From Escherichia coli (GTDB lineage Bacteria > Pseudomonadota > Gammaproteobacteria > Enterobacterales > Enterobacteriaceae), in the NCBI RefSeq assembly GCF_001677475.2, contig NZ_CP015229.1: DNA of 64,000 nt; one strand, 5' to 3'. The position numbers and the translations under genes were made by a program. Below are positions 41,814-42,480 of this stretch, in pieces. The notes below the pieces were generated by a model. The model did not search any database. It was not told the DNA's origin and was given only the letters and a program-made list of their open reading frames with translations. Every line of letters starts with the position of its first letter. Position 1 is the stretch's first letter.

Positions 41814-42173
41814 ATGCGTGTGTTTAAAACCAAATGGTTTGCAAGGGAAGCCAGGTCTCATGCAATAACAGATGAAGAGTTGTACCGGGCCATTTTAGAA
41901 ACGGAGCAAGGTAAAGCTGATGCACTTGGTGGTGGTGTTTTTAAAAAGCGCCTTCACCAAAATCGTGAGCGTGCAATTATTCTGGCGAAAGGGGGAAGCA
42001 ATTGGTTTTACACGTTTTTATATGCAAAAAAGGATATGTCGAACATCAATAGTCAGGAACTGGCTGGGTTTCGTGAACTTGCAAAGCATTATGCCTTCCT
42101 GACGAAAGCCCAACTAACAGCAATGATTAACACTAAAGAACTGACAGAGATCTGCTATGACTGCAAAAACTAA
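41814..42173 (+). CDS. Type II toxin, RelE/ParE superfamily (HigB-like), 119 aa
   Basis: Small basic protein encoded first and overlapping a downstream HTH gene by 17 nt, the HigB-HigA arrangement. Family call is from size, charge and context; not in the K-12 order as I remember it. Confidence 0.55.
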   Translation: MRVFKTKWFAREARSHAITDEELYRAILETEQGKADALGGGVFKKRLHQNRERAIILAKGGSNWFYTFLYAKKDMSNINSQELAGFRELAKHYAFLTKAQLTAMINTKELTEICYDCKN

Positions 42174-42480
42174 ATTTAAAAGTCCTGCATTTGAGGCTAT
42201 TCACAGCGCAGCGGCTGGATTGTCCAGCGTCGATGCTATTTCTGCCGAAACAATGCGTACTTTTGACAAAGCCTGCCTGACCAGCGTGCAAGACTTACAA
42301 CCTGTTGAGATAAAAGCACTGCGGGAAAAATTAAAAGTGAGTCAGCCCGTCTTCGCTCACTATCTCAATACCAGCGTTTCAACTGTACAAAAATGGGAAA
42401 GTGGCGCTAAACGCCCCAATGGCATTTCATTAAAACTGCTCAGCATTGTGCAAAAACACGGGCTGGAGGTGCTGCTGTAA
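42157..42480 (+). CDS. HTH (XRE-family) antitoxin, HigA-like, 107 aa
   Basis: C-terminal helix-turn-helix (LREKLKVSQPVFAHYLNTSVSTVQKWESGAKRP); overlaps the preceding small ORF. Confidence 0.6.
   Translation: MTAKTKFKSPAFEAIHSAAAGLSSVDAISAETMRTFDKACLTSVQDLQPVEIKALREKLKVSQPVFAHYLNTSVSTVQKWESGAKRPNGISLKLLSIVQKHGLEVLL

Follow-up and report, generated by a model that had tools for sequence, protein, structure and literature searches.

Two small overlapping genes, ORF1 and ORF2, lie between nepI and yicN in the window, which is the whole 64-kb stretch of Escherichia coli DNA that was analysed (Table 1). The sizes of 119 and 107 amino acids and the 17-nt overlap given by the sequence-only reading agree with the open reading frame list and with the sequence, and its placement of the pair between nepI and yicN is correct. 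The toxin gene precedes the antitoxin gene, and the antitoxin gene was immediately 3' of the toxin gene in all 80 of the 80 related loci examined. Of 83 pairs from other genomes, 60 have the 17-nt overlap as well, and it probably couples the translation of toxin and antitoxin. The neighbours of the pair are nepI, yicN and adeQ, with no defence island; nepI is transcribed divergently and has a true span of 40402-41586 (394 aa), the 410-aa open reading frame of the mechanical list beginning too far upstream.

Table 1. Positions in the window of the two genes, of their candidate control elements and of the features that mark the presence/absence polymorphism.
Feature	Position	Strand	Description
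Toxin gene ORF1	41814..42173	+	ATG start, 119 aa; PF06296 ('RelE'/HigB-2/ToxP family)
Antitoxin gene ORF2	42157..42480	+	ATG start, 107 aa; XRE helix-turn-helix
Overlap of toxin end and antitoxin start	42157..42173	+	17 nt, read from the open reading frame list and the sequence
Candidate operator	41766..41794		Inverted repeat TAAAGTATTGCAC-TTG-GTGATATACTTTA; 13-nt arms, 85% complementary
Candidate extended -10 element TGaTATACT	41783..41791	+	Inside the right palindrome arm; read from the sequence
ACAGGAT block with Shine-Dalgarno AGGA (41800-41803)	41798..41804	+	10 nt before the ATG
Presence/absence segment	41681..42520		840 bp; replaced by 41 bp in K-12
Toxin codons 29-34 (ETEQGK)	41898..41916	+	16/19 bases match GAAACGGAACAGGGCAAAG of the 41-bp K-12 filler
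REP-like palindromic element	42521..42595		Between antitoxin and yicN; 70/75 bases identical to K-12

That ORF1 and ORF2 are real genes and not chance open reading frames follows from the end-to-end match of ORF1 to PF06296 (E 2e-40), from the conservation of toxin and antitoxin in hundreds of species (539 loci) and from their dN/dS ratios (toxin 0.07-0.27, antitoxin 0.07-0.10). The toxin ratio shows that purifying selection acts on the toxin itself.

ORF1 scored 138 bits against the Pfam model PF06296 (gathering cutoff 27), with residues 1-113 aligned on profile positions 1-120 of 120; it begins at profile position 1 and has no N-terminal extension. PF06296 belongs to the Pfam clan of RelE/ParE toxins and includes Vibrio cholerae HigB-2 and Coxiella ToxP, which scored 34.5 and 164 bits on the same model. 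No other Pfam family matched ORF1 at E<=1. A profile search of the RelE/ParE, HigB and Gp49 families, which the sequence-only reading had suggested as a check, thus returned the RelE/ParE-clan family, while the Rts1/K-12-type HigB families (PF05015 HigB-like, PF09907 HigB_toxin), Gp49 (PF05973) and the ParE gyrase-poison family (PF05016) gave no match at E<=1. The narrowing of the module to the HigBA-2 type, as opposed to the Rts1/K-12 HigB type, is supported. ORF1 is 31% identical to ToxP (E 3e-18) and about 20% identical to HigB-2, and PDB sequence searches with ORF1 alone or with a 41-sequence family profile (phmmer/profile) gave no match, HigB-2 included. What connects ORF1 to HigB-2 is the Pfam model, a search by fold, and a multiple alignment in which ToxP serves as the bridge. 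An hhalign comparison of the family profile with the single HigB-2 sequence was weak and mis-registered (probability 2.7%), and was dropped for the MAFFT alignment.

The AlphaFold model of ORF1 (pLDDT 88) predicts a RelE-type (BECR) fold, an antiparallel sheet with N-terminal helices. In a Foldseek search of the PDB with this model, the top eight matches were all HigB-2 chains (probability 1.0, TM 0.5-0.6), followed by the RelE-fold RNases Cami1, Mtb HigB1, YoeB, YafQ and RelE. In the MAFFT alignment, the HigB-2 active site K49/R51/R64/Y82/K84 corresponds to K44/R46/R53/Y70/K72 of ORF1. The sequence-only reading had made its toxin call from context and size and had recognised no catalytic motif; the call holds, while the motif that it missed is there in these five aligned residues. 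Among 41 family members, K44 is conserved in 41, R46 in 39, R53 in 40 and K72 in 41, and the Y70 position is Tyr in 22 and Phe in 19. Substitution of HigB-2 R51, R64, Y82 or K84 by Ala lowers activity 170- to 3000-fold (PMC5416850), and K79E in ToxP, at the position of ORF1 K72, abolished toxicity in E. coli, as data not shown in that study (PMC10098735). The beta2-beta3 loop of ORF1 is 6 residues shorter than that of HigB-2, whose basic loop accounts for about 120-fold of the activity. At its C-terminus (about residues 96-115), ORF1 has a further helix and strand that are missing from HigB-2; in long-form PF06296 toxins such as ORF1 and ToxP, unlike HigB-2, E112 of this extension is invariant and C114 near-invariant.

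The toxin-first order and the XRE-type helix-turn-helix in the second protein, both described from the sequence before, were borne out, ORF2 scoring 32.9 bits on Pfam HTH_3 (cutoff 23). The helix-turn-helix at its C-terminal end (about residues 46-102) is the dimerisation and DNA-binding domain of the HigA-2/YiaG/AntitoxP type. Among solved proteins, ORF2 is nearest to HigA-2 (E 8e-10), with whose C-terminal domain the ORF2 model superimposes at TM 0.8 and rmsd 1.0-1.4 A with 40% identity, and ORF2 is 55% identical to AntitoxP over 104 of its 107 residues (E 7e-37). The N-terminal segment (residues 1-45) is conserved as well, A14, H16 and D37 being invariant in 34 pairs, and an AlphaFold model of a toxin-linker-antitoxin fusion places helices at residues 10-24 and 30-40 with pLDDT above 90. 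Several other names were considered for ORF2. MqsA matched in the helix-turn-helix half only and under its cutoffs (PF15731, 26.3 bits vs 30; TIGR03830, 41.1 vs 61.8), and an MqsA-type zinc-binding CxxC...CxxC domain is ruled out, ORF2 having a single cysteine, C40. The NadS equivalog (NF041265, 41.3 vs an NCBIfam cutoff of 60) and the YiaG equivalog (NF007481, 29.2 bits vs 110) have related helix-turn-helix domains and are other families.

Upstream of the toxin gene, the candidate operator palindrome occurs once within the window, and most of the 31 Enterobacterales loci compared, from several genera, have a palindrome at the matching place, 19-27 nt before the toxin ATG, with the family consensus core TATAGCAC-N3-GTGCTATA. 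By analogy with HigA-2, which uses one inverted repeat reaching over the -10 (PMC11006873), and with AntitoxP (PMC10098735), the antitoxin would bind this candidate operator. A consensus scan of the locus for promoters, with a required -35 box, and for terminators found no site. The TGaTATACT element is read by eye as a candidate promoter of the extended -10 type, a reading that its conservation supports, as a GTGnTATA(C/G)T block upstream of the toxin is kept across genera. The ACAGGAT block with the Shine-Dalgarno sequence is conserved in nearly all Enterobacterales loci examined. A PurR box was considered for the conserved TTAACGTTTTTGCAAC block near nepI and rejected by eye, as only the central AACGTT fits.

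Taken together, the pair very likely forms a chromosomal type II toxin-antitoxin operon that is intact and belongs with HigBA-2 and ToxP-AntitoxP, being made of a PF06296 toxin and a HigA-2/YiaG-like XRE antitoxin. The HigBA-like type II module proposed by the sequence-only reading is thereby upheld by the PF06296 match of ORF1 and by HigA-2 as the nearest relative of ORF2. In the likely mechanism, a single promoter, at the candidate extended -10 element, would drive the toxin and then the antitoxin, with the overlap coupling their translation, and the conserved N-terminal part of the antitoxin would wrap the toxin and bar it from the ribosome. When the antitoxin is depleted, free toxin would enter the ribosomal A site and cut translated mRNA by means of K44, R46, R53, Y70 and K72, and this cleavage would stop translation and growth. 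The structure of the genes, their family, the predicted fold, the aligned catalytic residues, the conserved operator-like palindrome, the obligatory pairing of toxin with antitoxin, the purifying selection and the distribution are shown by the present analysis; the toxicity, neutralisation, ribosome dependence and operator binding of the pair we infer from characterised homologues. Growth arrest relieved by the antitoxin and ribosome-dependent mRNA cleavage are known for the homologues HigB-2 (PMC5416850) and ToxP (PMC10098735). ToxP blocks cell-free protein synthesis, and AntitoxP restores it and attaches both to ToxP and to the toxP promoter (PMC10098735). We would also point out what speaks against this explanation, namely the low identity to characterised toxins, the shorter loop, the Phe at the Tyr82 position in 19 of 41 relatives, the lack of a promoter in the consensus scan and the slight growth effect of the Salmonella orthologue STM3777 in a retracted study (PMC3868539).

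The pair is found in 1716 of 5426 complete E. coli genomes, about a third, and always between nepI and yicN. The sequence-only reading knew of no such module in K-12, and it is indeed absent there: in MG1655, a gene-free interval of 210 bp separates nepI (b3662) from yicN (b3663). Where the pair is missing, in K-12 and in two thirds of E. coli, the 94 intergenic bp next to nepI are retained. The 840-bp segment, found in this strain and in 1716 E. coli genomes, has a GC content of 43%, compared with about 53% in the flanking genes, and its right-hand junction is the palindromic element before yicN. This element is called REP-like from a reading of its sequence, and its match to the REP-derived naRNA4 family is sub-threshold (27 bits vs 59.5). 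Within the 41-bp K-12 filler, the 19-nt GAAACGGAACAGGGCAAAG differs from toxin codons 29-34 by three mismatches, all synonymous third-position changes; a local score as high as that of the filler against the toxin was reached by 6 of 300 shuffles. The 19-nt match is a probable toxin-gene remnant and a probable deletion scar.

The phrase "edge of island 1" in the sequence-only reading suggests co-acquisition with the island, and the distribution of the pair speaks against this. O157:H7 carries the pair without the adjacent island, and the pair is beside nepI also in Salmonella (STM3777/78), Klebsiella and Citrobacter. Because the nepI-linked position is common to these three genera, the pair is ancestral at this place and does not belong to the neighbouring island; because O157:H7 has the pair without the island and other genera have it next to nepI, K-12 is most likely the derived, deleted state. 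It appears, then, that K-12 lost the pair rather than that the present strain gained it, and the module is most likely an old neighbour of nepI in Enterobacteriaceae that was deleted in K-12 and about two thirds of E. coli. A search of a phage collection found no phage genome with the pair, its single match being a Salmonella chromosomal contig. The top two matches in a plasmid collection were mislabelled chromosomes, and genuine plasmid copies, from K. aerogenes, Legionella, rhizobia, Coxiella and others, were 58% identical or below.

The two genes do not decay alike. Mixta, Lonsdalea and Winslowiella have a decayed toxin beside an intact antitoxin; O157:H7 and Erwinia mallotivora have lost the start codon of the toxin, and E. 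coli has toxin variants in circulation that are truncated or frameshifted. Antitoxin decay without toxin decay was never seen among the loci compared. As this one-sided decay is the pattern predicted by a live toxin, we take it as a sign, read from the sequences, of real toxicity.

The same observations could be read in another way, that the pair is what remains of a module after domestication or attenuation, with its proteins still made and its toxin hardly toxic, the helix-turn-helix protein being kept, with the toxin as its partner or co-repressor, for a host function such as control of neighbouring genes, the divergent nepI for example. The pair has stayed beside nepI since before Escherichia, Salmonella, Klebsiella and Citrobacter split, which a mobile addiction module would not usually do, and between genera the antitoxin is steadily more conserved (about 80% identical) than the toxin (65-72%). 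The basic loop of the toxin is shortened, several lineages tolerate start-codon loss and toxin frameshifts, and the Salmonella orthologue STM3777, in the one growth assay found for it, was among the toxins that "only slightly attenuated" the growth of E. coli, in a study that has been retracted (PMC3868539). We nevertheless regard this reading as unlikely. All five catalytic positions are kept, with K44 and K72 invariant in the family, the toxin is under purifying selection, and it is the toxin that decays and never the antitoxin alone. Moreover, the palindrome is present once in the window, and nepI is independent of the pair, since K-12 and two thirds of E. coli manage without it while keeping the nepI-proximal 94 bp. 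More improbable still is a host-integrated regulator, one with its toxin governed in cis by the toxin's own C-terminus or one that itself responds to a signal linked to purine-nucleoside export, in place of a plain addiction module; this reading draws on the conserved C-terminal helix and strand, the long residence on the nepI side and the conservation of the antitoxin above the toxin.

Abortive-infection phage defence as the main role is rather improbable, lying in our estimate between the two readings just weighed; it concerns role and not biochemistry and is compatible with a HigBA-2-type operon. Modules of the RelE/ParE superfamily have been considered as defence toxins (PMC11980606), GC content is low in the cassette, and the presence of the cassette varies among E. 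coli strains. The toxin nevertheless had no match in PADLOC-DB and the antitoxin only generic helix-turn-helix matches, no phage genome of the collection carries the pair, the neighbours form no defence island, and the pair keeps its place from genus to genus, where defence genes typically turn over rapidly. It is very improbable that ORF1 is a ParE-like DNA gyrase poison instead of an mRNA endonuclease, for all that the name "RelE/ParE family" fits both. C-terminal residues matter for ParE activity, and ORF1 has a C-terminal extension beyond the HigB-2 core. RelE and ParE also share one fold, and the family name cannot always separate them (PMC11980606). On the other side are the lack of any PF05016 match at E<=1, the RNases as nearest structures, with HigB-2 first, and the conserved RelE-type basic and aromatic active-site set. 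In addition, ToxP, with an equally long C-terminus, inhibits cell-free T7 transcription-translation, in which gyrase is uninvolved (PMC10098735).

The family, fold, catalytic residues and mode of regulation of such modules are already published, and the finding is an ordinary one. In 1716 complete E. coli genomes, RefSeq already gives the exact pair the label of a type II toxin-antitoxin system, and the PGAP name of ORF1 is type II RelE/ParE family toxin; in the literature searched, we found no study characterising the locus or any E. coli allele. What the finding adds is modest and concerns the cataloguing and the evolution of such modules: nepI has had this one as a neighbour since ancestral times, apart from the island, and the reference strain K-12 is most likely the deleted state, seemingly with a small scar. 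The module should be included when toxin-antitoxin systems are counted, or persistence and defence phenotypes are studied, in non-K-12 E. coli, O157:H7 included, with the caveat for such counts that the O157:H7 allele has lost the toxin ATG.

Four known systems can be set beside the pair. The 'relE-yiaG' modules that Gerdes described in 2025 (PMC11980606) resemble the pair in having a PF06296 toxin gene upstream of the gene for a YiaG/HigA2-like helix-turn-helix protein, and modelling suggested that the N-terminal helices of the antitoxin contact the C-terminal helices of the toxin (PMC11980606). Those toxins are described with extended, disordered N-termini, whereas ORF1 has no such extension, and ORF2 is far under the YiaG equivalog cutoff (29 bits vs 110). 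V. cholerae HigB-2/HigA-2 (VCA0468/0469; PDB 5JA8, 5JAA, 8A0X; PMC5416850, PMC11006873) is the best structural match to both proteins; it has in common with our pair a PF06296 toxin, the gene order, the active-site alignment and one inverted repeat over the -10, which in our pair is a candidate operator. It differs in the low identity of its toxin, which lacks the last 25 or so residues, and in its location in a superintegron. Its operator, TGTACGC-N5-GCGTACA, differs from the candidate operator core of our family in sequence and spacing, and the DNA-reading residues R68, E71, N72 and R77 of HigA-2 are S75, Q78, K79 and A84 in ORF2. The N-terminus of HigA-2 is a helix plus a strand, while that of ORF2 is two predicted helices.

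Salmonella Typhimurium STM3777-STM3778 is the positional orthologue: it adjoins nepI divergently and has genes of 360 and 324 nt with a 17-nt overlap, the toxin being 69% identical to ORF1 and the antitoxin 81% identical to ORF2. Two papers list it among the toxin-antitoxin loci of the RelE superfamily (PMC3868539, retracted; PMC4070546), and its functional data come from the retracted paper only. The gene on its far side is of the HPr family instead of yicN, and the arms of its candidate operator differ in sequence. The ToxP/AntitoxP pair of Coxiella burnetii plasmid QpH1 (CBUA0028/CBUA0027; PMC10098735) is plasmid-borne and serves plasmid maintenance, whereas ORF1/ORF2 is chromosomal; its genes overlap by 4 nt as annotated, compared with 17 nt here, its toxin is only 31% identical to ORF1, and ToxP retains the long basic GKGKRGG loop. 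Like ORF1, ToxP matches PF06296 over its full length, the C-terminal helix and strand included, the order is toxin first, the catalytic Lys K79 corresponds to ORF1 K72 with the remaining active-site residues conserved too, and the similarity of AntitoxP to ORF2 runs over nearly the whole length, N-terminal segment included. Experiments with ToxP/AntitoxP showed toxicity, inhibition of translation, formation of a complex and binding to its own promoter (PMC10098735).

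The two overlapping genes between nepI and yicN, which the sequence-only reading had described as a toxin-first, HigBA-like pair, were found with all the features of that description in the mechanical list of open reading frames and in the sequence. A profile search for a RelE/ParE toxin family placed the first gene product, ORF1, in Pfam PF06296 ('RelE toxin of RelE/RelB system') with 138 bits against a gathering cutoff of 27, and the match runs end to end, with residues 1-113 covering profile positions 1-120 of 120. No other Pfam family was found for ORF1 at E<=1, nor a matching model in NCBIfam or PADLOC. 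PF06296 is the family named PF_RelE by Gerdes (mBio 2025, PMC11980606) and includes V. cholerae HigB-2, whose sequence (identical to PDB 5JA9 chain C) scored 34.5 bits on the profile in a direct check. Neither ORF1 nor a profile of 41 family members gave a match in sequence searches of the PDB, so HigB-2 is a distant relative within the family.

Features of the toxin-antitoxin locus, in window coordinates
Feature	Position	Strand	Remarks
nepI	40402-41586	-	394 aa; true span from annotation of a near-identical strain
Inverted repeat TAAAGTATTGCAC-TTG-GTGATATACTTTA, candidate operator	41766-41794	.	19 nt before toxin ATG
TGaTATACT, candidate extended -10	41783-41791	+	in right arm of inverted repeat
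ACAGGAT, conserved Shine-Dalgarno block	41798-41804	+	3' of candidate -10
ORF1, toxin gene	41814..42173	+	ATG, 119 aa
C-terminal part of toxin, residues 96-119	42099-42170	+	common to long-form PF06296 toxins including ToxP; absent from HigB-2
ORF1/ORF2 overlap	42157-42173	+	17 nt
ORF2, antitoxin gene	42157..42480	+	ATG, 107 aa
REP-like palindromic element	42487-42552	-	right junction of presence/absence polymorphism; common to both forms
yicN	42596-43048	-	far side of pair from nepI

Against the PDB, the AlphaFold model of ORF1 (pLDDT 88, pTM 0.81) matches eight HigB2 chains best (probability 1.0, TM 0.5-0.6, ~20% identity), and after them the RelE-fold ribonucleases Cami1 (RelE domain), M. 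tuberculosis HigB1, YoeB, YafQ and archaeal RelE. Alanine substitution of R51, R64, Y82 or K84 in HigB2 lowers its activity 170- to 3000-fold (Hadzi et al., PMC5416850). In a MAFFT alignment bridged through ToxP, the toxin of Coxiella burnetii plasmid QpH1, and more distant family members, K44, R46, R53, Y70 and K72 of ORF1 occupy the positions of HigB2 K49, R51, R64, Y82 and K84. Among 41 relatives, K44 and K72 never vary, R46 is kept in 39 and R53 in 40, and position 70 holds either Tyr (22) or Phe (19). K72 also aligns with K79 of ToxP, whose spontaneous change to glutamate abolished toxicity in E. coli, reported by the authors as 'data not shown' (PMC10098735). The copy in the window is intact and keeps its ATG and every catalytic residue. 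HigB2 differs in having a basic beta2-beta3 loop six residues longer than that of ORF1, and in lacking ~25 C-terminal residues present in ORF1 and ToxP. This extension is predicted to form a helix and a strand, in which E112 is invariant and C114 near-invariant. One E. coli toxin variant cluster (P0007, 65 member sequences) has precisely this helix and strand deleted.

ORF2 carries the XRE-type helix-turn-helix that had been read from the sequence (HTH_3, 32.9 bits against a cutoff of 23). Zinc-binding cysteine pairs are absent from it, and its scores as MqsA, NadS or YiaG were under cutoff. Among solved proteins, V. cholerae HigA-2 is the closest to ORF2 in sequence (E 8e-10, residues 46-102). 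We modelled a toxin-linker-antitoxin fusion and assembled 34 non-redundant pairs from real loci. In the fusion model the helix-turn-helix domain superimposes on the C-terminal domain of HigA2 (TM 0.8, rmsd 1.0-1.4 A, 40% identity), and two helices are predicted nearer the N-terminus of ORF2, at residues 10-24 and 30-40 (pLDDT > 90). Conservation across the 34 pairs is good over the first 45 residues, where A14, H16 and D37 never vary. The ORF2 N-terminus is consistent with a predicted toxin-binding segment like that of HigA2. The PF06296 match, the HigB2 fold matches and the likeness of ORF2 to AntitoxP, the partner of ToxP, support the HigBA-like reading and narrow it to the HigBA-2/ToxP type.

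The palindrome upstream of ORF1 is found at the same place in most of 31 Enterobacterales loci, with the consensus TATAGCAC-N3-GTGCTATA, and its motif occurs once in the 64-kb window. Because a consensus promoter scan of the region found nothing, the promoter assignment is one that we infer. The HigA2 operator is likewise a single inverted repeat reaching over the -10, TGTACGC-N5-GCGTACA (PMC11006873), different from the palindrome here in sequence and spacing. At the DNA-reading positions, R68, E71, N72 and R77 of HigA2 are replaced by S75, Q78, K79 and A84 in ORF2, which fits the difference in operator. Closer to nepI, two blocks conserved in E. coli, Salmonella and Klebsiella (41649-41668 and 41691-41704) read TTAACGTTTT(T)GCAACT and a small palindrome, TCGAGGCTGCTCGA; both may be regulatory elements of nepI. 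The first is kept in K-12, and by eye it was a poor fit to a PurR box.

A scan of one genome per species yielded 539 loci encoding relatives. An ORF2 homologue lies directly 3' of the toxin in 80 of 80 retained loci, and 60 of 83 pairs overlap by exactly 17 nt. Purifying selection acts on the toxin (dN/dS 0.07-0.27) as well as on the antitoxin (0.07-0.10). In Mixta theicola, Lonsdalea quercina and Winslowiella iniecta (L019, L040, L066), premature stops leave toxins of 44, 63 and 80 aa, respectively, beside an intact 107-aa antitoxin; at another locus, L042, both genes are truncated. The toxin ATG has become ATA independently in O157:H7 strain Z563 (L001, 4175-4177) and in Erwinia mallotivora (L037), which may be attenuating; PGAP starts the O157:H7 toxin at a GTG two codons downstream, giving 117 aa. 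N-terminal frameshift, internal frameshift and C-terminal truncation variants also occur among the E. coli toxin clusters. Decay on the toxin side alone is the pattern expected if that partner is truly toxic. E. coli-like (96%) and Klebsiella-like (65%) copies on two ~1 kb contigs binned with an actinobacterium, 'MAG: Collinsella sp. Map_57_008' (L009, L044), which also hold yicN or nepI fragments, are almost certainly bin contamination by an enterobacterial pair.

The whole segment is present in 1716 of 5426 complete E. coli genomes, chromosomal in all, and overlies yicN in every one among the matches listed. PGAP names the products 'type II toxin-antitoxin system RelE/ParE family toxin' and 'helix-turn-helix domain-containing protein'. 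The sequence-only reading had rightly suspected the pair to be absent from K-12, and had placed it at the edge of island 1. K-12 MG1655 has neither pair nor island, DSM 103246, a strain nearly identical to the one studied, has both, and O157:H7 Z563 has the pair with yicS-nepI intact and no island beyond nepI, so the pair is independent of the island. The O157:H7 locus speaks against acquisition at the island edge, as do Salmonella and Klebsiella, which share the nepI-linked arrangement. Island 1 itself holds a 2933-aa ORF with many Ig-like repeats (31398-40199, - strand) directly downstream of nepI; DSM 103246 has at the same place 'inverse autotransporter adhesin IatC', an Ig-like-domain protein, IS2 and the HilA-family regulator gene eilA. 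In O157:H7 Z563 and K-12 this island is absent and yicS abuts nepI. On the other side, adeQ, which adjoins yicN, is intact in the window (43101-44435 region) and annotated as frameshifted in Z563 (L001 5462-6795).

In Salmonella Infantis, the genes equivalent to STM3777/STM3778 of Salmonella Typhimurium (360 and 324 nt, 17-nt overlap) begin ~215 bp from divergent nepI. Klebsiella pneumoniae has the same arrangement. For the most part, the gene beyond the pair is again yicN in K. indica, K. michiganensis, K. grimontii, K. oxytoca and Citrobacter amalonaticus. Relative to E. coli, the amino-acid identities (toxin 65-72%, antitoxin 79-85%, NepI 79-90%, YicN 70-85%) fit vertical descent; synonymous sites are saturated between genera. 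K-12 has 41 bp in place of 840 bp (41681-42520). The REP-like element at the right junction scores 27.3 bits against Rfam naRNA4, below the gathering score of 59.5. The K-12 filler, which lies between nepI and the REP-like element (L004 4835-4875), contains GAAACGGAACAGGGCAAAG, in which 16 of 19 bases equal toxin codons 29-34 (ETEQGK, 41898-41916) and all three mismatches are synonymous third positions; its local score was equalled in 6 of 300 shuffles (p ~0.02). This is suggestive of a scar left by an ancient deletion of the pair. On the simplest account, the module is ancestral at its place beside nepI and was subsequently lost by deletion from K-12 and many other E. coli, and the cassette GC of 43%, vs ~53% in the flanks, points to a foreign origin further back.

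Sequence analysis shows the family to which the toxin belongs, its predicted fold and catalytic residues, the pairing and overlap of the two genes, the palindrome and the selection on both genes. By analogy with HigBA-2 and ToxP/AntitoxP, an antitoxin dimer would use the palindrome to repress the operon and would sequester the toxin through its N-terminal segment; when antitoxin falls, the toxin would enter the ribosomal A site and cleave mRNA, and translation would stop. That ORF1 is instead a ParE-like gyrase poison is highly improbable, as it has no PF05016 match, the structures nearest to it are RNases, and ToxP blocks translation in a cell-free system. The main rival is an attenuated or domesticated module, for which the long synteny, the better conserved antitoxin, the shortened beta2-beta3 loop and the weak toxicity that a retracted paper gave for STM3777 would speak; the conserved catalytic residues and the purifying selection on the toxin argue against it, and we consider it unlikely. 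For a working toxin-antitoxin pair on the chromosome, selfish maintenance, stress response and phage defence are candidate roles. Nothing in the present results points to phage defence, and neither PADLOC nor the neighbourhood nor the phage collection gave any hint of a defence island around the pair.

The pair belongs to a kind already described. Pfam has a curated entry for the family, two members have been characterised in depth, and the pairing of PF06296 toxins with YiaG/HigA2-like antitoxins was described by Gerdes (2025, PMC11980606). The Salmonella orthologue is already in toxin-antitoxin catalogues and RefSeq annotates the same pair; experimental work on the E. coli copy was not found in the literature searched. 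In a plasmid protein search, 185 records carried the family, including 19 Coxiella plasmids. Two PLSDB 'plasmids' (H31 NZ_CP141089.1 and H32 CP125156.1; 4.9 Mb and 5.4 Mb) are clearly chromosomal, and nepI, uhp and phn genes surround the hit in them, so the apparent 'plasmid' carriage of close homologues is inflated. On QpH1, CBUA0028/CBUA0027 encode ToxP/AntitoxP. ToxP belongs to the same family as ORF1 (164 bits on PF06296), with 31% identity over 121 columns including the C-terminus (E 3e-18), and AntitoxP shares 55% identity with ORF2 across 104 of 107 residues (E 7e-37). Over-expression of ToxP blocks growth, AntitoxP rescues it, and ToxP inhibits cell-free protein synthesis (Wachter et al., PMC10098735). 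AntitoxP binds ToxP, and both AntitoxP alone and the complex bind the toxP promoter (PMC10098735).
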